38,361 bases of DNA from a virus. Made by a program: the position numbers and the translations under genes. Under the pieces are notes generated by a model that was given only the letters and a program-made list of their open reading frames with translations, was not told the origin of the DNA and did not search any database. The stretch spans positions 1-38,361 of IMG/VR virus record IMGVR_UViG_3300010236_000004. One strand, given 5' to 3'. This document shows, piece after piece, positions 5,115 through 38,361 of the stretch. Numbering within the stretch: the stretch's first letter is position 1; every line of letters begins with the position of its first letter.

Positions 5115-5536
5115 CCGTCAAATCCAGCATGATGAACTACGCGCTCTATGGGGCACTCCCAAATGTCAACCTCTTCCAGCAGCTCGTACCATGCCCCAAG
5201 TGCGGCGCCAAACACTGCATCGATGCTGCAAGGCGTGGGCCGGCAGTCTTCATGCTCACAGCCGCATCCTACCGTGTGATCTGCCTCAACTGCTGGCATA
5301 AATCCAACACCGCACGGACGGAAGAGGGCGCCATTCAAAACTGGAACGATGGTGACAGTGCCAACAGGCTGGCTCAACTTCGCAAGAAGCACAATCTCTC
5401 ACAGGCGAAACTTGCCGAGCTTGCCGGCGTGTCCGCTGTCACCATCAGCAAGATCGAGCGCAAAGACACCAACGGAAGCCCTGCGACACGTCGAAGGATA
5501 GCCAGGGCGCTCGGCGTCACCATAGCAGACATTTAG
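5111..5536 (+). CDS. Lar-like Zn-ribbon (restriction-alleviation family pattern) fused to a C-terminal XRE-type HTH.
   Basis: N-terminal CPKCG...ICLNCW...EEGAIQNWNDG follows the Lar-family pattern. C-terminal LRKKHNLSQAKLAELAGVSAVTISKIERKD is a typical HTH_XRE. Confidence 0.5.
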   Translation: MTVKSSMMNYALYGALPNVNLFQQLVPCPKCGAKHCIDAARRGPAVFMLTAASYRVICLNCWHKSNTARTEEGAIQNWNDGDSANRLAQLRKKHNLSQAKLAELAGVSAVTISKIERKDTNGSPATRRRIARALGVTIADI

Positions 5537-5789: not shown

Positions 5790-6578
5790 ATGCCAACAAA
5801 TATCGAATGGACGAACGAAACCTGGAATCCCGTCACAGGTTGCACGAAGATCTCCGAAGGATGCCGGCACTGCTACGCCGAACGCATGGCCAAGCGCCTG
5901 GCTGGACGCTATGGCTATCCAGAACAGCCGCATCACTTTGACGTGACTATTCATGAATCTCAATTCAATAAGCTGTACCGTTGGAATAAGCCAAGGATGG
6001 TGTTCGTTTGCTCAATGGGAGATCTATTCCATGAGGACGTTCCAGACAATGTCATCCGCAGGGTGCTCAATCATTTCAGGGTTTATGACAAACATACCTA
6101 CCAGGTGCTGACAAAACGCCCAAAAAGGATGTATGAGGTCTTCTCGCAATTTATCGATGAGGATTGCGACAGTGATGTTTTACCCAATGTATGGCTTGGT
6201 GTCACAGCAGAAAATCAACAGGCAGCCGATGAACGCATCCCCTGGCTTCTCAAAATACCCGCAGCCGTTCGGTTTGTAAGCATAGAGCCGATGCTGGGGC
6301 CAATAACATTTAACTGGCGTAAGTGGATACCGGAGACTCTTAGGGTGCTCGACTGGATCATCTGCGGCGGAGAGACAGGCCCGGGAGCCAGAACCACAGA
6401 ATATAAATGGGTTGATGATCTATTCTGGGAATGCAAAATGGCGAGTATTCCATTCTTCTTCAAAAAGGTTGGCGATAACCCTGATCCATCTCTTGTAGGT
6501 GCACCAATAACAGAATACCGCCAATGGCCTAATTCCCCAATCACCAATCACCAATCACTGCCCGGAGGGCGCTCATGA
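5790..6578 (+). CDS. Phage Gp37/Gp68 family protein (DUF5131).
   Basis: The hallmark N-terminus MPTNIEWTNETWNPVTGCTKISEGCRHCYAERMAKRL is present, and the length is typical for the family. Confidence 0.85.
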   Translation: MPTNIEWTNETWNPVTGCTKISEGCRHCYAERMAKRLAGRYGYPEQPHHFDVTIHESQFNKLYRWNKPRMVFVCSMGDLFHEDVPDNVIRRVLNHFRVYDKHTYQVLTKRPKRMYEVFSQFIDEDCDSDVLPNVWLGVTAENQQAADERIPWLLKIPAAVRFVSIEPMLGPITFNWRKWIPETLRVLDWIICGGETGPGARTTEYKWVDDLFWECKMASIPFFFKKVGDNPDPSLVGAPITEYRQWPNSPITNHQSLPGGRS

Positions 6579-6807: not shown

Positions 6808-7344
6808 ATGACCACAGTTGTTTGTGTCACTAAAGACGGCAAAACCGTTATGGCATCCGACTCCGCAGGCTCCAACGGCTCACGAATCTGGATCCAGGAT
6901 AAACCCAAGATCGTCACCATCGGCGATTTCACCATTGGCAATTCCGGATCCATACGGGAAGCAAATATCATCGAATACGAATTCTCTCCTCTTGAAAGAA
7001 AAGAGGGTGAAACAGACGAGAAATATATCTACCGGAACGTCAATCAAATCAAAGATCTGTTTGAAAAGCGCAAAACCAGCGAAAAAGATCATAAGTGCTC
7101 GAGCAAGTTCCTGATCCATTACAAGGGGAAGGTTTACGAATTCGACACTGATTTTCAATTCATGCAGTGGTCAGGCGACATGCACGCCATTGGGAGCGGC
7201 TCAGACTATGCCCTTGGTGCAATGAGTGCGTTGATTTACGATCCAGAACAGTCTGCTTTGGATATCGCCAGTAAAGCGATCCAGGTTGCCGCCCAGTTCG
7301 ATCCCAGCACTGTTGCTACGCCAATTCACACCGTTTTACTGTAA
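6808..7344 (+). CDS. HslV/proteasome-beta-like Ntn-hydrolase peptidase.
   Basis: N-terminal MTTVVCV provides Thr as a putative nucleophile after Met removal. DKPKIV gives a Lys near position 33. HAIGSGSDYALGAMSAL parallels the HslV motif AIGSGGPYAQAAARAL. Confidence 0.7.
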   Translation: MTTVVCVTKDGKTVMASDSAGSNGSRIWIQDKPKIVTIGDFTIGNSGSIREANIIEYEFSPLERKEGETDEKYIYRNVNQIKDLFEKRKTSEKDHKCSSKFLIHYKGKVYEFDTDFQFMQWSGDMHAIGSGSDYALGAMSALIYDPEQSALDIASKAIQVAAQFDPSTVATPIHTVLL

Positions 7345-16647: not shown

Positions 16648-17365
16648 TTTTTAAAGCGTTCTGGCAGTGCGTCAACTGCTTTCTTGTGAAAGTTTTTATG
16701 CTCCTTTGCTTCCTTTTCGCTTAATAGCCGCGATTTCGGTTTGGCAGTTAAATCCTTCAACGGTGGCATTTGCCTGGTCTTTATAAGCGCAGCCGTATGC
16801 CATGCCAGCCAGGCGCGTTCTTTATGTTCATAATCAAGGCGCCAGTTTGTCGCATGGATGGTAGCGTTTACCTCCCAGGGCGTCATATCCCAGTATTCGA
16901 GTGCGCTGATACCTGCTTTGAGCGCTTCATCCAGGAGCACATCCCACTTATTACGTGGATCCTTCTTTTTGTGCTCCTGGTTTATGCGTTTTTTTCTTCG
17001 GACTCCTCTTTCGGCATCCCGTAAGAGAGCACAGACGTCACAGCAGGGCCGATCGCATCCGCAGTCGGTGTGATACCAACCATCTCGATCACATCACAGG
17101 CGTCATCATAACTGATCGGGCCGCCTTCTGATTTAGTCGCACGCCTTTCAGCTTCTAATCCAGCCTGAAGCAGCAGCGCCATTTCCCGCACGCCTGATTG
17201 TCCGGTAGCAAAGCCACGGACCGCCATGCCGACGCTTTTTCCCATCCGTGTCTCAGCATCCGCCAAAGCACGGATTGTGAACAACGCTTTATAGGTTTCG
17301 ACGACGTTCCCCTCAGCGTCCTTCGCTTCCAGGATCGCTTCTTTCCGAGCACCCAGCATCGCCAT
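16623..17365 (-). CDS. Tail assembly chaperone G-T fusion, produced by -1 programmed frameshifting at 16988-16994.
   Basis: The -1 frame is open with no stops from upstream of the G stop through track ORF 16623..16940. The slippery heptamer sits 3 nt (one GCA codon) before the G stop codon. Confidence 0.7.
16982..17365 (-). CDS. Tail assembly chaperone (gpG-like / GTA-type family).
   Basis: 127 aa, between the major tail protein and tape measure genes. ATGA-type overlap with the major tail protein gene stop. Confidence 0.7.
   Translation of the reverse strand: MAMLGARKEAILEAKDAEGNVVETYKALFTIRALADAETRMGKSVGMAVRGFATGQSGVREMALLLQAGLEAERRATKSEGGPISYDDACDVIEMVGITPTADAIGPAVTSVLSYGMPKEESEEKNA
16988..16994 (-). 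promoter_or_regulatory. -1 ribosomal frameshift slippery heptamer A_AAA_AAC.
   Basis: The minus strand reads GAA GAA AAA AAC GCA TAA in the G frame. The X_XXY_YYZ pattern A_AAA_AAC is in the correct phase and shifting -1 enters the T-like frame. Confidence 0.7.
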
Positions 17366-17766
17366 TAGCTGGTCTCCTTAGTCCATCCGCCGCTGATTGT
17401 CAGCGAACATGAGACCGTAGCTTCACCCTGGTCGGGGTAGCGCTCTGAAAGGCTTGTCACCAGTGCGTCGGCTGTTTCGATGGTTACATCGTCGATCTGT
17501 TTGGCAACCAGGATCAGTATGCCATTTCGCATGGCGTCTTTCAGTGCCTCGTATCCTGCGTCGGATGAGACATACAGATGATCCAGGGTCACTCCAGCCG
17601 AATAACGTCCGGCAATGACCGCCTGTTCTCGTGCTGACTTGTTGGAAACATCGATCTCAGCGGTGCTTTCCTCGAAAGTCACGTCCCGCTGCGAGCCAAC
17701 GGCCGTATAAGATGGGACGCCGGGTGTGCCGGTATTCACCAGCAAAAGTACATCAGTTCCATTCAT
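17365..17766 (-). CDS. Major tail (tube) protein.
   Basis: 133 aa. MNGTDVLLLVNTGTPGVPSYTAVGSQRDVTFEESTAEIDVSNK... follows the TP901-1/phi13-type major tail protein pattern. Canonical position before G/GT and the tape measure gene. Confidence 0.85.
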   Translation of the reverse strand: MNGTDVLLLVNTGTPGVPSYTAVGSQRDVTFEESTAEIDVSNKSAREQAVIAGRYSAGVTLDHLYVSSDAGYEALKDAMRNGILILVAKQIDDVTIETADALVTSLSERYPDQGEATVSCSLTISGGWTKETS

Positions 17767-18269: not shown

Positions 18270-19085
18270 TTAGATTGCTTCCCATAAAGCAGGTGTATTT
18301 GGGGGTTCCCAGCCCACCTGGGCCGTGTGCGCCTGCAAGCATCTGTAATGTTTTTCATTGTGTGTCACCTCGTCGCCCACACTGTAAGAAACCCCATCCT
18401 CCCACACATCGCTTTCTCCCGCGGTTAGATTTTTCCAACCCGTCACATCCGGCGCCCAAACATTGGCATCAATTGTTGATTCGTAAATGTTTCCGTTGTA
18501 CTCAACTCTAGCACCAAGAGGGTAGGCGTCATGTGCACCCGTTGGCTGTACCCACGGCCAGGGATCGTCGCTTGGCTCATAAAACCGCTTCCACAACGAC
18601 CTTGTAACGGGCGGCGTCCAGTCGGATTGCGTCGTATGTGCTTGAATAACCTCGTAGAGATTCTTGTCGTACATGTAGATGTCGCCGACCTCGACAAAAA
18701 CCTGCGCTGCCCACTCGGGATAGGAGACAACCTCCTTCAGCTTGTTTACAACGGAGGCCGGGTTTAAGTCTTGCATGGCATAGTCAGCCACATCAGAGTG
18801 GAATTTCTTTTGCAGCCTAACCTTCACTTTATCCGCCTCAGATTCAAACATTCCAGATATTTCTCGCAGTCTGGATACCTTTTCGTAATCCTTTGATAGC
18901 GTATCAAGAACCTGCTCTATGCTTTCCGTTTCGTCATCGCCAATCAATTCGCTGAGTGAAACTCTTTTGATTTTGACCCCGTAGAATTTTTTGCCGACCT
19001 CTATAGTCGGGTCCGCCTGGATGATGTACTCGACAAATTGGCCAAATTCTGGAATCTCATCATAAATTATTTTTGGCATAGTCAC
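18270..19085 (-). CDS. Protein with three CBM5/12 (ChtBD3-like) carbohydrate-binding repeats.
   Basis: Three aromatic repeats: GDIYMYDKNLYEVIQAHTTQSDWTPPVTRSLW, GARVEYNGNIYESTIDANVWAPDVTGW and GDEVTHNEKHYRCLQAHTAQVGWEPPNTPALW. Confidence 0.65.
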   Translation of the reverse strand: MTMPKIIYDEIPEFGQFVEYIIQADPTIEVGKKFYGVKIKRVSLSELIGDDETESIEQVLDTLSKDYEKVSRLREISGMFESEADKVKVRLQKKFHSDVADYAMQDLNPASVVNKLKEVVSYPEWAAQVFVEVGDIYMYDKNLYEVIQAHTTQSDWTPPVTRSLWKRFYEPSDDPWPWVQPTGAHDAYPLGARVEYNGNIYESTIDANVWAPDVTGWKNLTAGESDVWEDGVSYSVGDEVTHNEKHYRCLQAHTAQVGWEPPNTPALWEAI

Positions 19086-20106
19086 CTATCCTTTCTTTTG
19101 CATAACCTACGCTTACTAATGGCTTGATATGTTTGTTGTAAAAATTAAAACTGTCGCTTCTTTTGATCCACCCCCAATAAGATACTATTGCGCAGGCGTC
19201 TCTATAGGACAGATGTGGCTTACTTGCAATTTTCTTTACCCTTCTTCTGATTCTCAATGCATTCCGTTTTCTGAGGATGGTTTTATCTCTAAAAAACCTA
19301 AAACCGAGAAAGTCAATGCCCCTTTTGTCGACCATAAACACCTGCCAGTTGCCTTTCAGGGTAAGATTGATACTGTCTAGATATTCCCGGATCCTCTGTC
19401 TGGCAGCATGGAGTTTTCTCTTGTTGCCTCCAAGTAAGACGAGATCGTCTACATACCGTATGTAATACCTGATTCCAAGCTGTTCTTTTATAAAGTGATC
19501 AAGTCCTTCCAGAAAAAAATTAGAAAACCACTGGCTTGTATAGTTTCCGATAGGAAGCCCCTTGTCAGAGCTCTCTACAATCGTGTCGATCAACCAAAGG
19601 CAATCACCATCCTTTATCTTTCTCCGAAACATATCTTTCAATATCTCTTTATCGATCGATGGGTAGAATTTCGTAATATCCATCTTCAAACAATACTTTG
19701 TTCCTCTATAGTCATTATCCAGCCATCTACGAAGCGCCTTTTGCCCAAAGCTCGTACCCCTTCCTGGTATACTGCCGCACGAATATCTATACATGCCTCG
19801 CATAATGATCTTCTCGATCTGCAGCATCAATGCCCAGTGAATGACCTGATCCGGATAAAATTTCGGAATGTGTATCAATCGCTCCTTTTTATTTGCGCCG
19901 TCGTAGATCTTCCTGGTTTTATATGGGCTGGGATTATATGATTTGTTAATGAGCATTTCAGAAATATTCTCAGCGTACAAATCTGCGTTTCCCAGTGTTT
20001 TAGCCACAAAATGTTTATGGCGTTTTCCAAGAGAGGCCTTATAGATGGCCGTCTTTACGTTTTCTGTGTCGCATATTTTTTCGTAAATATATCCTTCTCT
20101 TTTCAT
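19060..20106 (-). CDS. DGR-type reverse transcriptase.
   Basis: YVDD box (IRYVDDLVLLG) and the DGR-diagnostic LPIGNYTSQWFSNFFL ([LI]GxxxSQ) motif. 348 aa, directly downstream of the TR. Visibly AT-richer than its surroundings. Confidence 0.9.
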   Translation of the reverse strand: MKREGYIYEKICDTENVKTAIYKASLGKRHKHFVAKTLGNADLYAENISEMLINKSYNPSPYKTRKIYDGANKKERLIHIPKFYPDQVIHWALMLQIEKIIMRGMYRYSCGSIPGRGTSFGQKALRRWLDNDYRGTKYCLKMDITKFYPSIDKEILKDMFRRKIKDGDCLWLIDTIVESSDKGLPIGNYTSQWFSNFFLEGLDHFIKEQLGIRYYIRYVDDLVLLGGNKRKLHAARQRIREYLDSINLTLKGNWQVFMVDKRGIDFLGFRFFRDKTILRKRNALRIRRRVKKIASKPHLSYRDACAIVSYWGWIKRSDSFNFYNKHIKPLVSVGYAKERIGDYAKNNL

Positions 20107-20242
20107 CTTTCAACCTTCTTATTAGCCTCAGGGTGTTTCGAGAGTAAACCTACTAAACCCTGCTCTGTCGGCCTAATTTTCACCAAGTGGTGAGGAATAT
20201 GAAGTGCTGATAATTTCATGTCTATCTTTCTAATAAGAGTCA

Positions 20243-20344
20243 GCGCCCCGATGTTCACGTTCGTGTTCGACGAAGTGTTGTTCAAGTTCCAGTTCGACAA
20301 GCCAGCGTTCGACCCGTTGTTCCAGTTCCCGCCAACCTGGGCAA
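20243..20344 (-). repeat. DGR template repeat (TR).
   Basis: Non-coding copy. In the VR frame it reads AQVGGNWNNGSNAGLSNWNLNNTSSNTNVNIGA, with 11 AAC codons and 26 adenines. Confidence 0.9.
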
Positions 20345-20377
20345 GCACGCACTCCATATCCCTAAACATTCCTAACT

Positions 20378-20392
20378 GGGGGTGATCCCCCC
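20378..20392 (-). other. GC hairpin just downstream of the VR / target stop codon.
   Basis: The minus strand reads GGGGG(G)-AUCA-CCCCC about 11 nt after the TAG at 20403-20405. Confidence 0.4.
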
Positions 20393-20402
20393 GTCCCCCC
20401 TA

Positions 20403-22115
20403 CTAAAGAGCTTTTTTAAGAAGCCGCGCCCCGAGGCTCACGTGCGCGCTCGACGAAGCGTCGCGCAAGTTCCAGTACGACAAGCCAGCGTACGACCCGC
20501 TGCGCCAGCTCCCGCCAACCAGGGCAACTCTCTGCCCGGTGGCTTGATAGTAGTAATCGCTGTAATACTTATTATTTTCGCCTCCTATAATTGATGTTGG
20601 GAACGCCGCAAACGGGTTATCGGAATCAAACCCCATTTCGCTTATATAACCGTCGGCGTTTCCATTAATATACGACAACTCTTCGTATGGCGAGGCAAAC
20701 AGGTTGCTGGCGTAATCATTAGCGTCCCTGCATATCCAGGCTCTTAAATCGTTAATATTGACCCCATCCACAAACTGGAAGATGTCCCCGTACAAACTTT
20801 CGATGCCTCGGTAGCTAAACGAGTGTTTCCCGTCAGAATTGCTTGATATGCTACCGCTGGAAGCCGCAACCTTAGAACTGAAGCCCGTTTTCATGGCGGT
20901 GTTGTAAAGAATATCGCCAATAAATAACTCAACCGCATCGCCATCGAACGTAATGGTTGTACTTCCGGAGGATGGTGTATCTGCATCAATCGCTGTAATT
21001 GTTCTCCCATAAAAACGCTGGTTGCCGCCCAGGGTAGTGCCTACAGATATCGCCTGACCCACTTTGTAATTGGCGCCCACTGCATTTGAAACGACCAATG
21101 TGTTTCCAGCAGGGCTTGTGTCTGCGGTCAACAGGTCGGTATCTGTGTATCGACCATCCGCATAACCTCTCATAATGCTCTGAGAATTGAGCGTTGCAAA
21201 CTCGATATAGAAGAGCGTCGTCAGTGCATCGTAAGTATGGATGTCCATCTGTTGATACCCCAACAGCCCCCCAGTATTGTTGGCTTCTGCGGCGGTACGG
21301 AAATCTACGATGTTTGTATTGACTGTTGGGTAGACATCAGGAATAGACTGCAGCACACCGGCATCCACGTAGCCCAGATGTTTACCAACGTAGATGTAGG
21401 GAAGCTCCTCTTCGTTTTCGTAATCATAGAAACAAGCGGGCAAATAATAGCCCGCTCCCTGCACGTTCGAGATCTGCCAGGTTCTGGTAACTGCACTCTT
21501 TGTCTTTTTGATGTAGAATTTTGGTATTCTGACGAATGCATTACCAAGAACATCTTCTACCTCAATGATGTCCTTGTAAATTTCCGCTGTGTCAAAGTCA
21601 TTTGTTACAACAGAGCCGTCTACACCTGCTTCTGCCGTAAAACCCACAGAGTCGTCTGTGCGGGTCAACGTAGGTGAATCGCTCAAGTCCCAGGACACAC
21701 CATACACGATGGCAGTCTCTGCCTCTTCTGTCCAGCCATCATTTATAGTGAGAGAGCAAGTCACCGTGGCCTCTCCTTGGTCTGGATTGCGCTCAGAAAG
21801 ACTGGTAACCAGTGCGTTGGCTGTCTCGGTCGTCACATCGTCAACCTGCTTTGCGACAAGGATCAGCTCCTCGTTACGCATTGCATCCTTTAATGCCTCG
21901 TAACCTGCATCGGACTCGACATAAAGATTATCGAGTGTCAAGTTTGCCGAGTAGCGACCCGCGCCAACCGTCTGTTCACGTGCATTTTTGCTGGACAAGT
22001 CAATCTCTGCTGTAGACTCCTCAAAGCTTACATCTCTTTGTGAACCAACAGCAGTATAAATCGGTATAGTTGGTGTTCCTGTGTTCACTAGCAAGATAAC
22101 AGTTGTTCCATTCAT
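20403..22115 (-). CDS. DGR target: major-tail-protein paralog (aa 1-133) fused to a C-terminal extension of about 440 aa ending in a C-type-lectin-like variable region.
   Basis: The N-terminus MNGTTVILLVNTGTPTIPIYTAVGSQRDVSFEESTAEIDLSSK... aligns without gaps to the 133-aa major tail protein (106/133 identical). The C-terminus GGSWxxGxxAGxxxWNL...GAR is a typical DGR VR scaffold. Confidence 0.85.
   Translation of the reverse strand: MNGTTVILLVNTGTPTIPIYTAVGSQRDVSFEESTAEIDLSSKNAREQTVGAGRYSANLTLDNLYVESDAGYEALKDAMRNEELILVAKQVDDVTTETANALVTSLSERNPDQGEATVTCSLTINDGWTEEAETAIVYGVSWDLSDSPTLTRTDDSVGFTAEAGVDGSVVTNDFDTAEIYKDIIEVEDVLGNAFVRIPKFYIKKTKSAVTRTWQISNVQGAGYYLPACFYDYENEEELPYIYVGKHLGYVDAGVLQSIPDVYPTVNTNIVDFRTAAEANNTGGLLGYQQMDIHTYDALTTLFYIEFATLNSQSIMRGYADGRYTDTDLLTADTSPAGNTLVVSNAVGANYKVGQAISVGTTLGGNQRFYGRTITAIDADTPSSGSTTITFDGDAVELFIGDILYNTAMKTGFSSKVAASSGSISSNSDGKHSFSYRGIESLYGDIFQFVDGVNINDLRAWICRDANDYASNLFASPYEELSYINGNADGYISEMGFDSDNPFAAFPTSIIGGENNKYYSDYYYQATGQRVALVGGSWRSGSYAGLSYWNLRDASSSAHVSLGARLLKKAL
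20426..20527 (-). repeat. DGR variable repeat (VR), covering codons about 530-563 of the target gene.
   Basis: Constant offset of 183 nt to the TR with no indels. 16 substitutions, every one opposite a TR adenine. Encodes ALVGGSWRSGSYAGLSYWNLRDASSSAHVSLGA. Confidence 0.9.
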
Positions 22116-22858: not shown

Positions 22859-23473
22859 TTACTGCCTTATGTAGCGATAACGATCGAGAATGTCTTTTTC
22901 ACTCAACAGCAGCACCCGTGCAGCAGACGCCCCCATCACGCCTTCACCCACGCCGCCGCTGTGCTCTGATCCATAGCTAACCGAGTAATCACCAAGGCTC
23001 AATGCAGCCACCCCTGTGATTCCATCATGCTCTTTGGCTCTCAATCCCGCCTGGTACACCCTCGCAGCCGACCGTGTCGCAACGTCCGCAATGTCCGCAG
23101 GGATGGTTGCATAACCGTGGGTATAGGTAACTGTGATTTTCTGCACGCCGCTCAGCCAGTCCTGCCCAACCCTGTGAAGGATGCCGTACTGCCCCAATAT
23201 GTAATCGTCCGTCACTGTCAGGGTTTCGTCATCCTCAACAACGCTGGCAACCGACACCACTGGCAGCTCTGGCAAAAACAGCATATCCCCGCCGTCGCTA
23301 TCCAGCGTGATTTCATCATCTTCCACCAGCTCAATTTCCTGCTGGCAGTAATTCTTGATTGCCTCAGTCACAGCACTAATCGCACGCTCACACGATGCCC
23401 GGTTGTCAGCATCATCCATGATCGACAGATTCAGTAACTCTTCAACTTCTTGTACCGTGCAAAAATCAGCCAC
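22859..23473 (-). CDS. Head-tail adaptor (gp6-like connector).
   Basis: FCTVQEVEELLNLSIMDDADNRASCERAISAVTEAIKNYC resembles gp6-like connectors. I prefer the GTG at 23473 (8 nt after AGGAGG) to the track start at 23482, which abuts the SD. Confidence 0.65.
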   Translation of the reverse strand: MADFCTVQEVEELLNLSIMDDADNRASCERAISAVTEAIKNYCQQEIELVEDDEITLDSDGGDMLFLPELPVVSVASVVEDDETLTVTDDYILGQYGILHRVGQDWLSGVQKITVTYTHGYATIPADIADVATRSAARVYQAGLRAKEHDGITGVAALSLGDYSVSYGSEHSGGVGEGVMGASAARVLLLSEKDILDRYRYIRQ

Positions 23474-23560
23474 GAGGTTCACCTCCTTTGTGAACCGAAG
23501 CCCCCGAAGGGAGCATCAGCGACCGGAGCGGGGCAACTATCCCCTATCCCCGGTCATTTC
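23467..23560 (-). repeat. Copy 2 of the 94-bp conserved structured leader, upstream of and including the start of the adaptor gene.
   Basis: See copy 1 (16554-16647). GGUUCAC / GUGAACC forms a 7-bp stem that presents AAAGGAG in its loop. Confidence 0.8.
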
Positions 23561-24752
23561 ATAATTCTGCCTTCCACGCCTCGATCGCACTTTGCGCTGT
23601 TCCAGGCAAAAAACTCACATCAGCAGCCAACAGATCTTCAAACGTGTGCACCCCTTGCTCGTGCAGCTTCTCATCCGTTGCCTTTCCGACGCCGGAAATC
23701 GCCGTAAAATCTTCAAACTGCTCAACCGGCACCGCTTCCTTGTTCTCTCCAGGCAGCCGCATCTTGTTCCCCTGTGGCGCTCTGCCTTTCTCATGCGTGT
23801 ATTCCAGCCCAAGTTCCTGGGCATCTTTCAACCGCATCTTCGCATACTGCCCTGGACGAGAAAAAACCTTCACCAGTGGGTTATCTTTATTGTTCATGTC
23901 AACCTTTCCTTTAGGTATTTCACCTTGTAAACCATAACGTTCTCTTATTTTTTGTTCATCTTCCGGGCGGCATTTCACAAACTGCCCGGGAGCTAATTCA
24001 ATTCTTATCATCGGCAGCCGTGACTGTTTTGCCGCCTGCTTTTCATACTGCCGTGTGCGCTGCTTCATATCGATCCGCGCGTCCCCTGCACCAAACCAGT
24101 GATACAGCATGTAGCACTTCGACAAAGCGGATGTGTTCCAGGTGTGCGGCAGTGTCAGGTAAACAGCCTCTGACCGCAGTAGAGCGCGCAGCAGGGCAAC
24201 CTGTTCATCCCATCCCTGGTATCGTTCCCATTCTTCTGACCATAAGTCAAATAATTCCTTTGTTCTCTCATTCTTTCGCCAGAAGATCATCCCGCTGTTG
24301 TGATACAGCAGCAAGCCCGTCCCCATGTTTTTCGCAGTTTCAATGCACTCCCGTGGATCAGCAATCCCTTCATCCAGCGATCGTGTCTCTGTTTCAGCAA
24401 GTGCCGCATCCCACTTATCCAGCAGCCGAAACCCTTCCGTCGGCGGCCGCTGAAAATAAGTGTCGCAGTCCACGTACAGCGACCTTTCAAACGGGCTGAT
24501 TTTTGCCAGCAGCGGCTTGATCCGACCAGCCGAAAAACGAAATCCCTTCTTGCGATCGGGTGTAAACGGATCCACCTCACATAGGTGTGTATAGACCGTC
24601 TCATCATCCTCGAACGCCTTCACAGCGGCTTCATCCCCAACAATCAATACGGGTATTGTAGGCAGGAAGCGTCTTAGAGAATAGATCGATTGTTTTGCCT
24701 GCTCAATTGCATTATCGCCCCAGGCGATATAAATCACGCCGCTGTCTGTCAT
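23559..24752 (-). CDS. Glycosyltransferase-like protein (GT8-like, DxD motif) with a C-terminal helix-hairpin-helix region.
   Basis: GVIYIAWGDNAIEQAKQSIYSL...SLYVDCDTYF is paralogous to the C-terminal half of 25333..26541. The C-terminal ISGVGKATDEKLHEQGVHTFEDLL is HhH-like. Confidence 0.55.
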   Translation of the reverse strand: MTDSGVIYIAWGDNAIEQAKQSIYSLRRFLPTIPVLIVGDEAAVKAFEDDETVYTHLCEVDPFTPDRKKGFRFSAGRIKPLLAKISPFERSLYVDCDTYFQRPPTEGFRLLDKWDAALAETETRSLDEGIADPRECIETAKNMGTGLLLYHNSGMIFWRKNERTKELFDLWSEEWERYQGWDEQVALLRALLRSEAVYLTLPHTWNTSALSKCYMLYHWFGAGDARIDMKQRTRQYEKQAAKQSRLPMIRIELAPGQFVKCRPEDEQKIRERYGLQGEIPKGKVDMNNKDNPLVKVFSRPGQYAKMRLKDAQELGLEYTHEKGRAPQGNKMRLPGENKEAVPVEQFEDFTAISGVGKATDEKLHEQGVHTFEDLLAADVSFLPGTAQSAIEAWKAEL

Positions 24753-25336
24753 GCCATCCTCCGAAAAGCGATCAAATAATCCACCTGGTCGATCAGGCGC
24801 CATCTCGTTACCGACCCTGACCAGTTCTCAGGGTCCAGCCACCACTCCGTGACCGCCTTTGCCACGCCCGGGATGGACGGTTGGAACATATCATGAAAAC
24901 AAATAATGCCATTTCCCTTGATCTTCGGCGTCCAGTCAGCGATGTCCTCTTTCACGGTTTCATAGCTGTGACCGCCGTCCACGAATAGCATCCCGATTTC
25001 ATCTTCATAAAACGGTGCCGCATCATGGCTCATTAATTCAAACAATTCCGGTGCTTCCAATCCTGCTTTTTCCAGGTTCGATCGCCATAATCTCGCACTT
25101 GGGATCATCGTGTTTGGCGTCTGCAAAAATGGATCCACGCTTGCCACATTAGCACCAAACACTTTAGCCGCTTGCATCAATACAGCCGTTGACCGTCCAT
25201 GTAAGCAGCCGATCTCGACCAGCGGCCCCTTCTGCCTGGCTAACTTATACAAAAATGCCAATTCTGCCTCATGCATCTGCCCAGGGATGCTCATTGCGAG
25301 TTTTGCAGCATTGGTCGCTTCACGTTCTATGGTCAT
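24749..25336 (-). CDS. Class I SAM-dependent methyltransferase (Methyltransf_24-like).
   Basis: VEIGCLHGRST (motif I) and LFVDGGHSYETVKEDI...GIICFHD. ATGA overlaps at both ends. Confidence 0.7.
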   Translation of the reverse strand: MTIEREATNAAKLAMSIPGQMHEAELAFLYKLARQKGPLVEIGCLHGRSTAVLMQAAKVFGANVASVDPFLQTPNTMIPSARLWRSNLEKAGLEAPELFELMSHDAAPFYEDEIGMLFVDGGHSYETVKEDIADWTPKIKGNGIICFHDMFQPSIPGVAKAVTEWWLDPENWSGSVTRWRLIDQVDYLIAFRRMA

Positions 25337-26541
25337 TTTGGCGCTCCCTCTCTGCTGCATCGCCTGTGGGCGTGGTAAACAAATTGTGCGTCTTTGATCC
25401 TATGTGTGTTCCAGGATTGCCGCATCGATGCCAGCCGTACAGGGTACTTACCCATCGCCCTGAAAAACGCTGGCTGATCCTGTTTGCCCCATCGCTGCCA
25501 TTCCTGGTGCCACGATTGCATCAACCTTTTCACTCGATCCTTACGGGTGAAATACATCACGCCTGTGTTGTAATAGCAGTATTCCCCGCCGCCTGTCTCC
25601 CGCTTTGTTTTGGTCATCTCTTCTTTGATCATCCGTGGGTGACGGTTGCGGTTGAAAATTCTCACCGTGTCCTGCCCCATCACCAGGTCAACATTATCCA
25701 AAAGGTCAAACCCATGCTGGGGATCACTCAATACTTCTGTGTCAGCATCCAGATAAAGCGTCTTATAAAAAGGTGATAATGAATACATCCTCGTTTTGAT
25801 ATTTCGGGCGCCGCGATCCATATCCACGTGCCTGATCAGTATATCCGCCCCTTTGACCTGCTTAGCGTCCGTTATGACCGCTATAGGCTTGTCTGTAATG
25901 CGCTCTGTTAAAGTTTCAATGGATTTTTCCACGTTCAGAACGGCTTTTTCACCATAAGCGACGTACAGAACGCCTTCCTGGGCGATTGTATGGCGAAAAG
26001 CGATCATCGTTCCGGCTCGCTCAACCTCAATCCAGTCAGGGTTGGCTTTATGCCAGTCATCCACTGCTTCTTTCACTTCTGGACGGTCCAACGCTTCTTT
26101 TCTTGCCGGACCGTAATCATGGATGCATACAGCGCCGCCTGGTCGGACCTTCGGCGTGTAATTGTTCAAATCGTTCAAACACTCTTCATAGCTGTGACCG
26201 GCGTCAATGTGCAGCAGGTCGATCTCATGCTCAAAATCACTGGCAACCTCGTCCGTGGTGCCGATGTAAAATTCAGCCTGCACCCCTTTGCTTTTCAGGT
26301 TAGCCTGTGTCTCTTCAAGCGTCGATCCCTTATAACCTCGATGGCTCATATCCCCAAACCAGTCAATCCCGTACAGTTTGGCTTTCGGATTAGACAATCC
26401 CATCGCAATCAGAGACCGCCCCTTATAGCAGCCAAGCTCAGCGATGCTCTCAGCAGATCGAGCCATCCTGCAAAGCAGGGCAAGCTCGTCAACGGTCATC
26501 AAACCGTGTACACCCTTCACTTTTCTTAATATCTCATCCAT
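25333..26541 (-). CDS. Fusion of a SAM-dependent methyltransferase (N-terminal) and a glycosyltransferase-like domain (C-terminal).
   Basis: N-terminal AELGCYKGRS...LLHIDAGHSYEECLNDL...GGAVCIHD. C-terminal GVLYVAYGEKAVLNVEKSIETL...TLYLDADTEV (DxD). Confidence 0.65.
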   Translation of the reverse strand: MDEILRKVKGVHGLMTVDELALLCRMARSAESIAELGCYKGRSLIAMGLSNPKAKLYGIDWFGDMSHRGYKGSTLEETQANLKSKGVQAEFYIGTTDEVASDFEHEIDLLHIDAGHSYEECLNDLNNYTPKVRPGGAVCIHDYGPARKEALDRPEVKEAVDDWHKANPDWIEVERAGTMIAFRHTIAQEGVLYVAYGEKAVLNVEKSIETLTERITDKPIAVITDAKQVKGADILIRHVDMDRGARNIKTRMYSLSPFYKTLYLDADTEVLSDPQHGFDLLDNVDLVMGQDTVRIFNRNRHPRMIKEEMTKTKRETGGGEYCYYNTGVMYFTRKDRVKRLMQSWHQEWQRWGKQDQPAFFRAMGKYPVRLASMRQSWNTHRIKDAQFVYHAHRRCSREGAPK

Positions 26542-26566
26542 GCAGCAGTGTCCAATCCTTTTTGTC

Positions 26567-26594
26567 GGGGAACGGAGATATCTCCCCGTCCCCC
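26567..26594 (-). other. Strong stem-loop between the capsid gene and the methyltransferase gene.
   Basis: 12-bp perfect palindrome GGAGATATCTCC flanked by GGGG/CCCC arms. No U-tract follows on the minus strand, so I do not call it a terminator. Confidence 0.35.
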
Positions 26595-26632
26595 GTCTTT
26601 ACTTTCAGCTTTCAGCCTTTAGCTTTTTGCTA

Positions 26633-27865
26633 TTAGCTTGCCGCCAGTGAAACCTCAACAAAGGCGGTGGGCTTCAACACGCCGAATGCGGCACGGAGCT
26701 CTCCGAGGATTGCAACCATGTTACGGATGAAGAAGTCATCGTGAGAATCGCTCACGCTGATCGTGGTCTGTTCACGATCCCACAAAACAGCCTTGTTCCA
26801 GTTGCCGAGGATCGGTGTATCTTCAACAGCGTTGAAGCTCTCGATCACAGGCACACCCCAAAGGGTGTTGGGTCCGGCTGCGAATGGGCCGCCGCGATGG
26901 TAACGACCGTAATCGTCCTTCAGCAGGTCGATGTCTTCCCAGTTGTTGGGATGCATCACCCATGCTGTTGGGGACACCTTGCCGTTCGTGCGCAGGTTCG
27001 TGATTGCCTTCCGGCAGGTTTCCAAAATGCTCGTGGAGTAAGCCTGTCCGAGGACGTTGGAGGTGTTGTAGATGCCGGTGAATTCACCGTCAGCGCCGTC
27101 ACCATTCAAGATCAAGCGGTCAAGTTCTTCCAGCAAGTCATCACGGATTTCCTGGTCGATGATCCCACGGAGCTGTGAAGCGTCCGAGAGCGCCATCTTT
27201 GTGGCAGGCACCCACACCGCAACGGTTTGTACGTTGGATGTCACACGGGCGAAGGTTGTTGCACCTTCGGGCTTATCGCCGCCTGTGGCTGTTGCAGTAG
27301 CTTCCTCAACAGCCGTGGCTTGTGTCACCTGGGCTGTCTGGCGGACGAATTCCACCGCATCTGTGGTTGTCTGGCGTCGTGATACCAGGTCAAGAACAGA
27401 AGTTGGGTAACGTCCGAGAGGCTCATAAATGCCGGTGTCCTCAGCAACGATGAAAGCACCGCCGCTGGTGGCACCTGCACCGGTCACCAGGGTTTTGATG
27501 TTCAAGCCTTCGATCTCAACCGCAGGAGAGTTGATCCCTTTCATGCTGTCAGGGATTCGCCCATTAGGAGCGATCTGTTTCAGCCAGGATTGGAAGGCAT
27601 CATGTTTGACGAATTGATCGCCAATAGAACCGCCTGCCATCTTCCTGGTCTTTTGCTCACCCTCAGCCGCTTTGGCTTCAAGCTCTGAAGAAATACGCTC
27701 AACCATCTCGTGGTCGTCTTTGTGTTTCTTTGCCTGGGTGAGTTTTTCGGAAACCTTCGCCTTTTCCTCGTCGGTCAGGTTCCGGTCTTCACTGATTGCA
27801 AGCTCAGTGATAGCTTTTGCTTCCTGCAATAATGCAGTTCGTTTTTCTAAAAGTGTCTTGGGCAT
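26633..27865 (-). CDS. Major capsid protein, HK97 family, with an N-terminal delta/scaffold-like coiled coil.
   Basis: 410 aa, directly after the prohead protease gene. N-terminal MPKTLLEKRTALLQEAKAITEL...EEKAKVSEKLTQAKKHKDDHE coiled coil followed by an HK97-type body. Confidence 0.9.
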   Translation of the reverse strand: MPKTLLEKRTALLQEAKAITELAISEDRNLTDEEKAKVSEKLTQAKKHKDDHEMVERISSELEAKAAEGEQKTRKMAGGSIGDQFVKHDAFQSWLKQIAPNGRIPDSMKGINSPAVEIEGLNIKTLVTGAGATSGGAFIVAEDTGIYEPLGRYPTSVLDLVSRRQTTTDAVEFVRQTAQVTQATAVEEATATATGGDKPEGATTFARVTSNVQTVAVWVPATKMALSDASQLRGIIDQEIRDDLLEELDRLILNGDGADGEFTGIYNTSNVLGQAYSTSILETCRKAITNLRTNGKVSPTAWVMHPNNWEDIDLLKDDYGRYHRGGPFAAGPNTLWGVPVIESFNAVEDTPILGNWNKAVLWDREQTTISVSDSHDDFFIRNMVAILGELRAAFGVLKPTAFVEVSLAAS

Positions 27866-27866
27866 G

Positions 27867-28505
27867 TTAATCCTCCAAAAGTTCTAAATCTAAATAGGTT
27901 AATATTGTTTCCGGACTCACGCCGCTCTCATTACTGGGATCTCCAGCCTCTGATTCGTTTGTTTCGTCAGGATTCTGATCAGCATCTTCCGACGCTGTAC
28001 CATTTATGTCGTTGCGAGCTTGCGAAGCAATCTCGTCTTCCTTGGCGCTCTTGATGTCCGTGGTCATCGTGCCAATGCCAGCGCCCAAAAGCACCGGCGA
28101 TACTTCGTGCACCTTCATTTTCTCGAGAAATCGCACTTGCTGATCCTCAAACTCGCCTTCTGAGGTCTTCTCGATGTCAAACCCGTAGCTCCATTCCTGC
28201 AGCTCCGCCAGATTCTTGACCGTTTTGTAGGTTTCAAGACCTGCCTGTGTGTCCAGGAAGAATTTCCCGTCAACCCATGCTTTCTCTTCATCTGCGCCAA
28301 GCACACCCCTACCAACCGGCAGATCGTGCCAGCGATGCCCCCAGTAGGCGATCCGCACCTTCTGGCCGACCTCAAAAGCACCGGGGAGCGTTACATCCCT
28401 GTCAAGGTCGATCACATTGAAGGTGGCAAAAATCGCACGGAACGAACCTTGCTCGTCGTCACCCTCTTTGAATTCGATTGTTGGTCGAAATACTTTTTTA
28501 TACAT
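27867..28505 (-). CDS. HK97-family prohead protease.
   Basis: GSFRAIFATFNVIDLDRDVTLPGAF is the family N-terminal pattern. Located between the portal and capsid genes. Confidence 0.85.
   Translation of the reverse strand: MYKKVFRPTIEFKEGDDEQGSFRAIFATFNVIDLDRDVTLPGAFEVGQKVRIAYWGHRWHDLPVGRGVLGADEEKAWVDGKFFLDTQAGLETYKTVKNLAELQEWSYGFDIEKTSEGEFEDQQVRFLEKMKVHEVSPVLLGAGIGTMTTDIKSAKEDEIASQARNDINGTASEDADQNPDETNESEAGDPSNESGVSPETILTYLDLELLED
28012..28033 (-). repeat. Copy A of the 22-bp element TTGCGAGCTTGCGAAGCAATCT, inside the protease gene.
   Basis: Exact core. On the coding strand it encodes IASQARND in frame. Confidence 0.85.
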
Positions 28506-28568: not shown

Positions 28569-30557
28569 TCATTCAGTTTCCCTGTTGTATCTCAAACTGC
28601 ATTCACAGTTCACCGTCTCTGCTGCGCTGCCTTCATAATCACCAGGCCAGCGCATCCCATTCGAAAATCTTTCATAAATGCCAACAGTCTCCCCGTTCAT
28701 CGAAGAGTGGCTGTCTCGTGGGTTGGTCGAATTCACCACCCAGGTCTTTGTCGTGATCCTTCCCTTCACCGCTGCCTTGTAAGCACCGTAATTTGAAAGG
28801 CTGGTCACCCGTCCGATCGCAAACCTTGCCACCGTCACGGCCAGCAAACCCTGAAACACACGCTGCACAGCCGACTTCGGGTCTTCCTGTGTCAATGCCT
28901 CTTCAATTTGCAGCCGTGTGCTCTCATTCATGTACTCGGCGGCAATGCGGGCATTTTCATCGATGTATTTCTGCATCGTCTCTTCTGTGATAACCACGCC
29001 CAACGCTTTGCCGAGGGTTTGAGCCCATGCCAGCGCTGTTTGCATGCTCAACGGCGTAAAATCCGCAGTAACCTCGTTATTCCAGCGATCGACATCCCAG
29101 ATAGCATCGATATCTTTTATGTTGTCATTGCGAGCCTGCGAAGCAATCTTTCCTTTTCCTATCTGCGGTAAGATCGCATTCTGTTGACGCTCAAACGTCT
29201 TCACCAGCAGCGAACGCCATTTCTCGTCGTAGATATCCTTCAACGCTGGAAATCGCATATCGAACGACTCTATTTCTTTGATGTTGTCATTGCGAGCTTG
29301 CGAAGCAATCTTCTTTTCCACGTCTCCATCCTTCGGAGCGCTATCCGTCGGGCTTGCCTGACCGCCAACCAGCACATTCAGCGGCACGATCAGCTCATCA
29401 GCACCTTCGATCTTCGGCAGGTTCATGATCGACCGTGCCTCATTGACTGTCATGTACGCTGTACCCGTTGCAGATTGCAGCGATCGGATCTGTGTCTCAA
29501 AATCACCTGTCATCTTCTCCTGGATGTTGAATTCCAGGTAAACGCCTTCCGTATCGTCAAAATCTTTCAGAAGTTGCAATTGCAGATCTTCTTCGATCAT
29601 CGCCAGCCACGGACCCAGCACATCGGTATACAGGCTCTTATGCTGGCTCTCAATGTTGGAATACGTTGCATGATCCAGAATCCCTACCAGTGGTGGTGGG
29701 ATGTGATAGGCTCTCGCACATTCTTCCCGTGTCAGCTTTCGCCCTTCCAGGTATTCACTGTCCTTCGGGTTGAATGAAATACTTTTGAATTCCATCCCGT
29801 CTTCCAGGATTGCCGTCTTCCCGCTGTTCTCAACACCAGAATACAACGCCTGCCACTCTTTTTTGAAACGCTGCCTGGCAATATCGCTCCAAACAGGTGA
29901 ATTAGCCGGACGGTTGATAACGCCGTTCATCCTGGCTGAGTTCTGCCAGTATTTCTCACGATATAAGGCAGCCGCATGCTCTTCCGCAAGCGTACGTCTT
30001 AGCGTCTCCAATGGCGATAATCCCTTTACGGCACTTTCAGAGTTATAAGACCGAAAATGAATGATTTCATCGGCAGCGTAAGTGCTTGGATTGCCAGAGT
30101 TGAAATTAAGCGTGTATTCGCTTGGATACAGGCTTCCTTTGACCGACACATAAATCGGCGGCAGCCTGACCAGCCCTTCCAGAACGCCGTCGCTGTTGAT
30201 TTCCTTTTTCAAAAACGCATTCCCGTAAATGCCAAGATCGCTCATTATTGATTCGATCATCCGGTAGCGTGTGAATTTCATCTTGTTTGGCAGCGGACGT
30301 CCGAGAAGCAATGCGATTGGGTGATCCCGTAAGCGTATCCGTCCTCTGTCAGCGTCCTGCCGGTAGGTATGCAGCCCAAGCTGAGCGATGTTTCTGGCAA
30401 GAAAATCAACGCAGGTTCGCACGTTCGGCTGCTCTTTGTAAAGCGTCGAGTAATCTTGCGTGAAACCGTTATACAGCGAGATACTGCCGCTTGTGGATGT
30501 TGGCCACCAGCCAGCTTCCATATTCACCAGGGTACGTTCTGATACAATTACGCTCAT
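28569..30557 (-). CDS. Portal protein (HK97 family) fused to a C-terminal MuF / SPP1-gp7-like minor head domain.
   Basis: Portal-type core (...EDGMEFKSISFNPKDSEYLEGRKLTREECARAYHIPPPLVGI...). C-terminal ...NPRDSHSSMNGETV...RWPGDYEGSAAETVNCECS is a MuF-type ending. Confidence 0.8.
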   Translation of the reverse strand: MSVIVSERTLVNMEAGWWPTSTSGSISLYNGFTQDYSTLYKEQPNVRTCVDFLARNIAQLGLHTYRQDADRGRIRLRDHPIALLLGRPLPNKMKFTRYRMIESIMSDLGIYGNAFLKKEINSDGVLEGLVRLPPIYVSVKGSLYPSEYTLNFNSGNPSTYAADEIIHFRSYNSESAVKGLSPLETLRRTLAEEHAAALYREKYWQNSARMNGVINRPANSPVWSDIARQRFKKEWQALYSGVENSGKTAILEDGMEFKSISFNPKDSEYLEGRKLTREECARAYHIPPPLVGILDHATYSNIESQHKSLYTDVLGPWLAMIEEDLQLQLLKDFDDTEGVYLEFNIQEKMTGDFETQIRSLQSATGTAYMTVNEARSIMNLPKIEGADELIVPLNVLVGGQASPTDSAPKDGDVEKKIASQARNDNIKEIESFDMRFPALKDIYDEKWRSLLVKTFERQQNAILPQIGKGKIASQARNDNIKDIDAIWDVDRWNNEVTADFTPLSMQTALAWAQTLGKALGVVITEETMQKYIDENARIAAEYMNESTRLQIEEALTQEDPKSAVQRVFQGLLAVTVARFAIGRVTSLSNYGAYKAAVKGRITTKTWVVNSTNPRDSHSSMNGETVGIYERFSNGMRWPGDYEGSAAETVNCECSLRYNRETE
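29128..29149 (-). repeat. Copy C of the 22-bp element, inside the portal::MuF gene.
   Basis: One mismatch (TTGCGAGCCTGCGAAGCAATCT). Flanks are also shared with copy D, about 40 bp in total. Encodes KIASQARNDNIKDID. Confidence 0.85.
29290..29311 (-). repeat. Copy D of the 22-bp element, inside the portal::MuF gene.
   Basis: Exact core, 162 bp from copy C. Encodes KIASQARNDNIKEIE. Confidence 0.85.
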
Positions 30558-38184: not shown

Positions 38185-38361
38185 GTTTCGTGGTAATTTT
38201 CCCAGTTACTTGATCGTGAGGATAAAATATTTCCTTTTGATCATGGTCAACACACGGCACTGTGATTTTCGCAGTCCGTGCTTTCACGTTCATCTCAGCA
38301 GCATCAGACTTGATTCCTATCTCTTCCCTGGATACGCAGTATTGCAAATCGCTCTCAAACT
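38150..38361 (-). CDS. 3' part of the junction-spanning gene (see 1..239).
   Basis: Track ORF 38150..38347 is in frame with the ATG at 239 once the 67-bp overlap is collapsed. Confidence 0.5.
   Translation of the reverse strand, partial: FESDLQYCVSREEIGIKSDAAEMNVKARTAKITVPCVDHDQKEIFYPHDQVTGKITTKHGWPEPDPTDD
38295..38361. repeat. Terminal direct repeat; second copy of bases 1-67.
   Basis: Identical 67-mer at both ends of the window. Confidence 0.95.

Follow-up and report, generated by a model that had tools for sequence, protein, structure and literature searches.

To our knowledge, a coating of methylated sugars on virions has been shown experimentally only for phages of mycobacteria and for giant viruses of algae. 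For virion glycosylation in mycobacteriophages, PMC11600133 and PMC11256854 cite Freeman et al. 2023. Here we compare these systems with a three-gene module (genes A, B and C) that combines methyltransferase (MT) and glycosyltransferase (GT) domains and lies directly after the major capsid gene in IMG/VR virus record IMGVR_UViG_3300010236_000004. The window, by which we mean the whole stretch of DNA analysed (positions 1 to 38,361 of that record; 38,361 nt), has identical first and last 67 nt (1-67 = 38295-38361); because of this exact overlap of both ends, it is a circularly closed assembly, the complete genome of a siphovirus of ~38.3 kb. Related contigs measure 37-42 kb. We consider glycosylation of virion proteins with methylated sugars to be the probable, if not assured, function of the module.

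These two reports describe the enzymes of phages Che8 and Corndog as modifying capsid and tail tube proteins, and virion glycosylation in these phages as weakening antibody recognition (PMC11600133, PMC11256854). In our domain scan, Che8 gp108 (4172-5347 in locus L248), listed as 'glycosyltransferase' in GenBank, has an N-terminal family GT2 domain and a C-terminal Methyltransf_24/TylF domain, while gp109 is family GT2-like and gp110 family GT25-like. Corndog gp35 is a TylF/Methyltransf_24 methyltransferase by the same scan; the three genes after it are described as GTs (PMC11600133), and two of the three have a Pfam GT match. Che8 gp108-110 (cluster F1), Corndog gp35-38 (cluster O) and the window module all consist of soluble GT-A glycosyltransferases and a Methyltransf_24/TylF O-methyltransferase. 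A first-pass annotation of the window, made from the sequence alone, had drawn an analogy to actinobacteriophages with glycosyltransferases encoded beside capsid genes. The analogy proved stronger than the annotation could tell: Che8 gp108 is a GT-MT fusion, and Corndog gp35-38 sit inside the head morphogenesis block, between portal and protease and not directly after the capsid gene as in the window. The Che8 GT genes, however, lie at the right end of the genome and not beside the capsid gene.

Other differences set the window module apart from both phages. Its GTs show no pairwise similarity to characterised mycobacteriophage GTs (BLASTP E 0.64), so homology was not found at the level of sequence, and its MT domain is a distant relation of the Che8 gp108 MT (hhalign E 6e-5). 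The GT families are GT2-like and GT25-like in Che8 and Corndog, whereas those of the window are retaining and GT8/GT77-like, and the domain order is GT-MT in Che8 gp108 but MT-GT in gene A. Unlike in Che8 and Corndog, both the MT and the GT are duplicated in the window module. The host phylum is probably different as well: Che8 and Corndog infect mycobacteria, while relatives of the window fall into Chloroflexota bins.

In the chlorovirus PBCV-1, A064R (GT-GT-MT) rhamnosylates and then 2-O-methylates a capsid glycan (PMC7826918). Like the window module, it is a case of virus-encoded enzymes joining glycosyltransferase and methyltransferase domains. Yet it belongs to a eukaryotic giant virus with a double-jelly-roll capsid and N-linked glycans, and its rhamnosyltransferase domains are not of the GT8/GT77 type. 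A064R was not among the top 50 viral structure matches, and we liken it to the module by description, not by sequence. Our verdict from these comparisons is that the module would be a sequence-distinct variant of phage-encoded virion glycosylation and not a sequence member of the known systems.

Enzyme classes of the module

Gene A encodes an MT domain (MT1) fused to a GT domain (GT1) with the motif LDADTEV, gene B is a stand-alone MT (MT2), and gene C encodes another GT domain (GT2) with the motif VDCDTYF, followed by two repeats and a helix-hairpin-helix (HhH) tail (Table 1). In what follows, GT1 and GT2 without the word family always denote these two domains. Profile searches bore out the fusion in gene A that the first-pass annotation had proposed, with Methyltransf_24 matched by one half and Nucleotid_trans/GT8 by the other. 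The PF03407 (Nucleotid_trans) scores of the two GT domains are 33.3 and 34.7 bits (cut-off 22), and PF01501 (GT8) reaches 24.8 bits on gene A against a cut-off of 24.3; no NCBIfam model matched the GT domains. MT1 and MT2 are 29% identical (E 3e-21) and GT1 and GT2 28% identical (E 6e-28), the latter pair reaching E 1e-47 in a profile-profile comparison (hhalign), so that both pairs are paralogues. The MT-GT unit is present twice in the window genome, once fused and once split, as the annotation had it.

We obtained AlphaFold (AF2) models of genes A and C from 40-sequence alignments. The gene A model has a mean predicted local distance difference test score (pLDDT) of 91.6 and a predicted template modelling score (pTM) of 0.90. 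For gene C the pLDDT is 85.2, with low-confidence residues (221-241, 278-287 and 323-342) around the repeats and values of 95-97 in the HhH segment.

The top Foldseek matches of the MT1 model in the PDB are three sugar O-methyltransferases, namely MeT1 (6g7d, E 1e-12), the spinosyn rhamnosyl 4'-O-methyltransferase SpnH (4ce0) and the mycinamicin enzyme MycF (4xvz), with E from 1e-12 to 1e-9, target-normalised template modelling (TM) scores of 0.72-0.75 and identities of 19-22%. Catechol-type and tRNA O-methyltransferases come next. The MT family profile also matches MeT1 by sequence (E 2.5e-6), where LLHvDaGHsyEE...GGavciHD of the profile is aligned with FLFIDGGHTEE...GGALVIHD of MeT1. Across 40 homologues, the S-adenosylmethionine (SAM) motif ELGxxxGxS of MT1 (E35-L-G37...G41-x-S43) is nearly invariant, as are D113-x-G-H116 and H141-D142, candidate metal-binding residues that align to FIDGGH...IHD of MeT1. 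The MT domains have the class I SAM-MT fold with a glycine-rich SAM motif, and they share with MeT1, SpnH and MycF the fold and the Pfam PF13578/PF05711 group; their D-x-G-H and H-D region, putatively for metal and SAM, aligns to that of MeT1. Those three enzymes, however, act on free oligomannoside or on macrolide/spinosyn sugars, not on protein-linked glycans.

We predict that MT1 and MT2 are SAM- and Mg-dependent O-methyltransferases, and O-methylation as such is well supported by the models. A sugar hydroxyl is the likely substrate but not a certain one, because catechol and tRNA O-methyltransferases share the same fold group. The PHROG label of the MT family, 'DNA methyltransferase' (phrog_2675), was dropped in favour of this structure-based assignment. 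We also discarded the idea that the second MT-GT pair is fused in relatives with homologues of ~450 aa, such as P0100. The N-terminal Methyltransf_24 domain of P0100 has no BLAST similarity to gene B, and proteins of this type therefore carry a different MT fused to GT2.

Foldseek matches of the GT models comprise the xylosyltransferase domain of LARGE1, GlyE, the Skp1 alpha-galactosyltransferase (6mw5), XXYLT1, LgtC, glycogenin and UGGT, all with E from 1e-10 to 1e-7 and the first six with probability 1.00, at sequence identities of only 12-18%. GlyE belongs to the pneumococcal pathway for serine-rich-repeat glycoproteins. The motif set of family GT8 (DxD, N-S/T-G and D-Q) was defined from LgtC and glycogenin. 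Among 40 homologues of GT1, there is no variation at D265-A-D267, G327 and D355-Q356 and almost none at N325; among 40 of GT2, H151-N-S-G154, D182-E-Q184 and H218 are invariant and D95 and D97 nearly so. The DxD, NSG and DQ motifs align with LDADT, FNSGV and DQ of glycogenin-2. GT1 and GT2 are thus predicted to be retaining GT-A glycosyltransferases of the GT8/GT77 group, and both copies of both enzymes look catalytically intact, because the motifs are conserved in both paralogues and align with glycogenin-2. Fold and motifs are common to the module GTs and to glycogenin, LgtC, GlyE, XXYLT1, LARGE1 and the Skp1 galactosyltransferase; unlike these enzymes, the module GTs occur in phage head operons, with a methyltransferase as fusion partner or companion.

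Neither domain type resolved to a DNA- or nucleotide-modifying enzyme, the outcome that the first-pass annotation had named as telling against its proposal of virion glycosylation. The MTs led instead to sugar O-methyltransferases, and the GTs to GT8/GT77 enzymes, the majority of which build protein or lipo-oligosaccharide glycans.

Gene order, relatives and accessory features

The structural genes of the window follow one another on the minus strand in the order small and large terminase, portal, protease, capsid, genes A-B-C, adaptor, head completion and tail genes. The GT and MT genes are therefore co-located with structural genes in the late head operon, the arrangement looked for in virion glycosylation. 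The annotators' view that three co-oriented, coupled genes interrupt the capsid-adaptor junction is confirmed by the open reading frames (ORFs), by the neighbours matching PF05065 and phrog_442, and by a relative whose capsid protein is 42% identical (L173). There the adaptor directly follows the capsid gene after a gap of 284 bp, and the module is therefore an insertion into this junction. Both junctions within the module are ATGA overlaps of stop and start, with the ribosome-binding site GAGGGAG before the overlap of genes A and B and GGAGGA before that of genes B and C. Because of these overlaps and their ribosome-binding sites, translational coupling of the three genes and the shorter of the candidate start codons are supported; gene B homologues are 194-200 aa long, in agreement with the shorter start. 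A consensus scan of the coding strand gave no promoter- or terminator-like signals of note inside the module, and proteins A, B and C have no transmembrane segments.

Between the capsid stop and the start of gene A is a hairpin with a minimum free energy of -34.7 kcal/mol (z = -4.6; 0 of 200 shuffles were equally stable). In 16 relatives, too, a strong hairpin is found at this position, each time with a different sequence. The hairpin of the window was not called as a terminator by the consensus scan, and it is probably a partial terminator or an mRNA-stabilising element that leaves capsid protein in excess over the enzymes.

To place the module among known viruses, we compared it with 50,697 GenBank phages by blastn and tblastn and found no match at E <= 1e-5; judged by these searches, the family is known from metagenomes only. 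In a library of representatives at 50% identity, the MT-GT protein has 431 matches at E <= 1e-10. Most are to the GT domain alone, and the full MT-GT architecture occurs in about three clusters only among these 431. We annotated 160 related loci by means of iterated profiles that started from the proteins of the window. Where a capsid gene and a GT/MT gene were both present (54 loci), the distance from the capsid stop to the start of the first GT/MT gene is at most 150 bp in 28 cases and at most 800 bp in 46. The capsid proteins of these 54 loci form six clusters at 35% identity, and the terminase and portal types differ too. A capsid-protein profile found 490 relatives in IMG/VR; among the best 80, which we inspected, the module comes next in 52 and is clearly missing in 3, and the remaining contigs end too soon. 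We regard this linkage to the capsid gene as the strongest functional clue that the sequences offer.

The content of the insertion varies more than its position. In 34 non-redundant intervals from capsid to adaptor, a pair of GT domains is the recurrent element, and with it come 0, 1 or 2 MT domains, either fused or separate. Other lineages have further architectures, namely a GT4-GT8 fusion of ~550 aa, a tandem MT-MT protein and a B12-binding radical-SAM methyltransferase. We read this pattern as a core for two sugars that is conserved, and a tailoring that is optional and differs between lineages. One phage whose terminase, portal and capsid types are all different from those of the window (L001, 10001-15114) has after its capsid gene an MT-GT gene, two MTs, a GT, a B12-binding radical-SAM methyltransferase and a GT, with a GT2/GT1 protein further downstream; this cluster suggests that sugars are methylated at carbon as well as at oxygen. 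In a second capsid lineage (L040-L061 and L087; for example L042, 6548-7009), a conserved protein of ~145 aa with the motif GK.ITQLTQAGGD..D.V.IEL.TEE.DV and no NCBIfam match is encoded between the capsid gene and two paralogous GT genes, and may serve that lineage as decoration protein and glycan acceptor.

Distant cellular homologues of the GTs (<= 32% identity; Frankia, Rhodobacterales and cyanobacteria) are stand-alone genes without phage neighbours. We rejected a cellular prophage context for the module, as only the three closest genome matches are phage contigs in metagenome-assembled genomes (MAGs) and the distant ones are lone cellular GTs, uninformative on the phage module. One of the close matches (L084, CAZDTW010000009.1; 39.7 kb) carries the full phage gene order and the module, and is found in a MAG labelled 'uncultured Methanobacterium sp.', which is probably a binning artefact. 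Other close genome matches are in Chloroflexota/Anaerolineaceae bins. From MAG binning only, a Chloroflexota host is probable but not established.

The C-terminal part of gene C has a history separate from that of its GT domain. A PGQ(F/Y).K.R repeat inside gene C had been annotated, and the two copies indeed align locally with a score of 59, a value not attained by any of 2000 shuffles (20 +/- 4). In the AF2 model, repeat 1 has strands at 249-254 and 257-261 and a helix at 263-272. The annotated HhH tail also stands, with HHH_5 scoring above its cut-off, but it is not part of gene C in general. In most relatives GT2 is ~275 aa long and ends with repeat 1, and repeat 2, a conserved NKM..P.ENK and the HhH domain form a separate gene of 90-160 aa just upstream of the adaptor. 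The two are fused in the window, in L003/L004 and in L007, and variants of the small gene in L002 and L018 have a basic tail in place of the HhH domain. The small repeat-HhH gene also occurs between capsid and adaptor without any GT or MT (L245, 2098-2466; L247, 5894-6262). Because the HhH tail is encoded separately in most relatives and is present without a GT in these two loci, it is not intrinsic to GT2, and the comparison points to an independent head-region gene. No family was found for the repeat motif in Pfam (E <= 1), PHROGs or NCBIfam, the HhH domain alone being recognised. The beta-hairpin-helix motif that GT2 has in common with the small protein suggests that both bind the same partner. 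We propose that this partner is the assembling head; a heterodimer tethering GT2 to DNA is the alternative.

The coordinates of all these features are given in Table 1, together with those of a complete diversity-generating retroelement (DGR) that lies among the head-tail joining genes (19060-22115, minus strand). Its template and variable repeats differ at 19 positions, 17 of them template adenines. The DGR target has 570 aa and begins with a tail tube domain of 125 residues (Phage_tail_2), a paralogue of the ordinary 133-aa tube protein at 17365-17766. Because of this N-terminal domain and the variable repeat, we read the target as a tail-tube-like protein with a hypervariable C-terminal domain. 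Directly downstream of the reverse transcriptase, a 271-aa ORF (18270-19085, minus strand) has two CBM_5_12 modules (E 3e-27). The early region on the plus strand encodes an HslV/proteasome-like peptidase (6808-7344; PF00227 E 1e-8, phrog_1040 E 2e-27) and a DUF5131 (Gp37/Gp68) protein (5790-6578; E 1e-80).

Table 1. Positions of the module, its domains and neighbouring features in the window.
Feature	Position	Strand	Description or evidence
Portal	28569-30557	minus	
Protease	27867-28505	minus	
Major capsid protein	26633-27865	minus	HK97 fold; PF05065 E 2e-41; phrog_10 E 3e-62
Hairpin	26566-26595	minus	GC-rich, 13-bp stem, no U-tract after; between capsid stop and gene A start
Gene A	25333-26541	minus	402 aa; MT1 and GT1 domains
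MT1 (gene A, N-terminal, aa 1-185)	25987-26541	minus	PF13578 Methyltransf_24 E 1e-17
GT1 (gene A, C-terminal, aa 186-402)	25333-25986	minus	DxD in LDADTEV; PF03407 E 6e-8; PF01501 E 2e-5
Gene B (MT2)	24749-25336	minus	195 aa; stand-alone; PF13578 Methyltransf_24 E 3e-18
Gene C	23559-24752	minus	397 aa; GT2 domain, repeats and HhH tail
GT2 (gene C, N-terminal, aa 1-232)	24057-24752	minus	DxD in VDCDTYF; PF03407 E 2e-8
Repeat 1 (gene C, aa ~246-275)	23928-24017	minus	APGQFVKCR; beta-hairpin and helix in AF2 model
Repeat 2 (gene C, aa ~290-320)	23793-23885	minus	RPGQYAKMR; homologous to N-terminus of separate small gene
HhH domain (gene C, aa ~344-397)	23562-23723	minus	PF14520 HHH_5 E 3e-6, 28.2 bits, cut-off 27
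Head-tail adaptor	22859-23482	minus	phrog_442 E 1e-36; downstream limit of module
DGR variable repeat	20417-20527	minus	111 nt; 83% identical to template
DGR template repeat	20234-20344	minus	
DGR reverse transcriptase	19060-20106	minus	

Candidate acceptors and alternative roles

Our preferred reading is that genes A-C form a late-expressed, phage-encoded glycosylation cassette. In the scheme we propose, whose acceptor, sugars, order of steps and motif docking are conjectural, the two soluble retaining GT-A enzymes would draw on the nucleotide sugars of the host and assemble a short glycan on a virion protein, at an exposed hydroxyl group. The most likely acceptor would be the major capsid protein, encoded immediately upstream, a choice that we draw from gene position only. 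The two Mg/SAM-dependent sugar O-methyltransferases would then cap or decorate the sugars with methyl groups, the two GT domains being a near-constant core and the methyltransferases an optional tailoring. Through translational coupling and the hairpin that follows the capsid gene, the enzymes would probably be kept at catalytic levels while capsid protein is made in bulk. The beta-hairpin at the end of GT2, common to the small HhH protein, may dock both on the same partner in the assembling head.

The capsid protein itself has several features of interest. K198, N382 and E389 are invariant in 23 relatives; N382 and E389 are 7 residues apart, as are N356 and E363 of HK97, which have K169 as the partner lysine, so that the capsid may form HK97-style isopeptide cross-links. 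In the long form of the E-loop (capsid residues ~186-200; loci L164-L203), E-[AS]-N-V-T-x-Y is present in 96% of aligned module-bearing capsids and resembles a bacterial N-glycosylation sequon. The window's capsid protein has the short Thr-rich form (EATATATGGDKPEG), and three module-less relatives have no E-loop Asn. We rejected E-[AS]-N-V-T as a module-linked feature: it is missing in the window's capsid and in several module-bearing ones, and the negatives amount to two independent lineages.

Several points weigh against the glycosylation of virion proteins. Gene adjacency is, as far as the sequences go, the sole link between module and capsid, and no feature of the aligned capsids separates module-bearing from module-less phages. 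Judging by the models, most structural neighbours of the GTs extend glycans and do not initiate them on protein, and there is no evident initiating enzyme unless one GT acts like glycogenin. GT2 is fused to an HhH domain of the DNA-binding type, and GT8-like GT-A enzymes can add secondary sugars to DNA-linked glycans (10.1101/2023.12.21.572611). With no GenBank phage match at E <= 1e-5, the module family is without an experimentally characterised member. Finally, nucleotide-sugar synthesis genes are not present in the genome, and the sugars are therefore not predictable.

It is possible, though unlikely, that the acceptor is another virion protein, such as the tail tube, the DGR target or the small HhH protein, and that adjacency to the capsid gene reflects late co-expression only. 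This is compatible with our explanation, from which it differs in the acceptor alone. Capsid and tail tube subunits are both reported to be modified in mycobacteriophages (PMC11600133); the ~145-aa protein of the second lineage could be the acceptor there, and the motif common to GT2 and the adjacent small protein might single out the latter. However, the window has no decoration-type gene between capsid and gene A, where the gap is only 91 nt, the small HhH protein is present without GTs in some relatives, and nothing ties the position of the module to the tail genes.

A role outside the virion seems less likely still. The module could remodel the host envelope late in infection by changing a glycan that is lipid-linked or part of the cell wall or S-layer; if the receptor were destroyed or masked in this way, for instance, progeny would not be lost on debris or superinfection would be blocked. 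We hold this, benefit included, to be improbable. Phage GTs that change surface antigens are well known, the GT8 relatives LgtC and WaaJ/WaaO act on lipo-oligosaccharide cores, and the distant GT homologues (<= 32% identity) are stand-alone cellular genes. Yet known cassettes for surface conversion have integrase or immunity genes nearby and membrane proteins among their products, whereas genes A-C are translationally coupled inside the head operon and their products have no transmembrane segment. Pfam and PHROG scans of the genome's ORFs found no flippase or lipid-carrier enzyme, and the place directly after the capsid gene is kept in six capsid lineages, neither of which fits an envelope target.

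The HhH domain raises the question of DNA as the substrate. HhH-guided GTs might sugar modified bases before packaging, with the MTs methylating those sugars, and so protect the genome from host nucleases. GT14I and GT43I, two GT8-like GT-A enzymes, add secondary sugars to glycans linked to 5-hydroxymethylcytosine (5hmC) in phage DNA (10.1101/2023.12.21.572611), and hypermodification clusters resemble the window module as late-acting sets of GTs, some of them GT8-like GT-A glycan extenders. The module is expressed late, when DNA is packaged, a genuine HhH domain ends gene C, the small protein next to it repeatedly has an HhH or basic tail, and PHROG names the MT family 'DNA methyltransferase'. 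We nevertheless consider DNA glycosylation very unlikely, because no enzyme for making hydroxylated pyrimidines was found among the genome's ORFs of 90 aa or more. Known clusters always include such a maker (a C5-MT with 5mYOX, or a ThyS-like enzyme), usually along with nucleotide-pool enzymes, and in known pathways the hydroxyl-making genes cluster with the GTs. In contrast, Pfam and PHROG scans of ORFs >= 90 aa over the complete window genome detected no C5-cytosine MT, TET/5mYOX, dCMP/dUMP hydroxymethylase (thymidylate-synthase-like), dCTPase or nucleotide kinase. What the scans otherwise gave was a replication initiator, a helicase loader, RusA, an exonuclease-like protein, HNH, lysis genes, DUF5131 and the HslV-like peptidase. 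The MT fold, moreover, matches sugar and small-molecule O-methyltransferases rather than DNA methyltransferases, the HhH protein is separate in most relatives and also present without any GT, and the module is linked to the capsid gene and not to replication genes.

Least probable by our estimate is a free cytoplasmic methylated oligo- or polysaccharide, unattached to the virion and aiding assembly or metabolism in the manner of mycobacterial methylmannose polysaccharide: the nearest solved MT relative is MeT1 of that pathway, which consists of a GT and two O-methyltransferases (PMC9883506), but its GT, ManT, is GT-B/GT4 while the module GTs are GT-A (PMC9883506), no hydrolase partner is present, and the strict linkage to the capsid gene would be left unexplained.

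Implications for uncultivated phages

Returning to virion glycosylation as the preferred role, it is tempting to extend it beyond the window. Taken as a single reading, which we put forward tentatively and as possible rather than probable, capsid glycosylation would be widespread but unrecognised in uncultivated siphoviruses, in probable Chloroflexota phages from anaerobic digesters and at least five other capsid lineages. A dedicated retaining GT8/GT77-like family, always directly after the capsid gene, would build the glycan; O-methyltransferases, B12-radical-SAM methylases and GT4 fusions would turn it into a lineage-specific, partly hydrophobic coat of methylated sugars; and the short beta-hairpin motif that GT2 and the small HhH head protein have in common would dock GT2 on the assembling head.

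If this is true, self-glycosylation by phages would reach well beyond those infecting Actinobacteria, and unrelated families of glycosyltransferase would have been joined with a sugar methyltransferase, by the same logic, on at least two occasions. A methylated coat could alter how stable the particles are, how readily they stick to organic matter and adsorb, and how grazers or immune systems recognise them, which bears on the ecology of phages in digesters and sediments and on the engineering of 'stealth' therapeutic phages. For such engineering and related work, the module would provide a compact three-gene cassette for heterologous hosts. The strict order of capsid gene followed by GT would make it simple to survey metagenomes for phages that are candidates for glycosylation, with this order as the genomic marker, and the finding offers a clear and testable sign that capsid glycosylation may be common among uncultivated phages.

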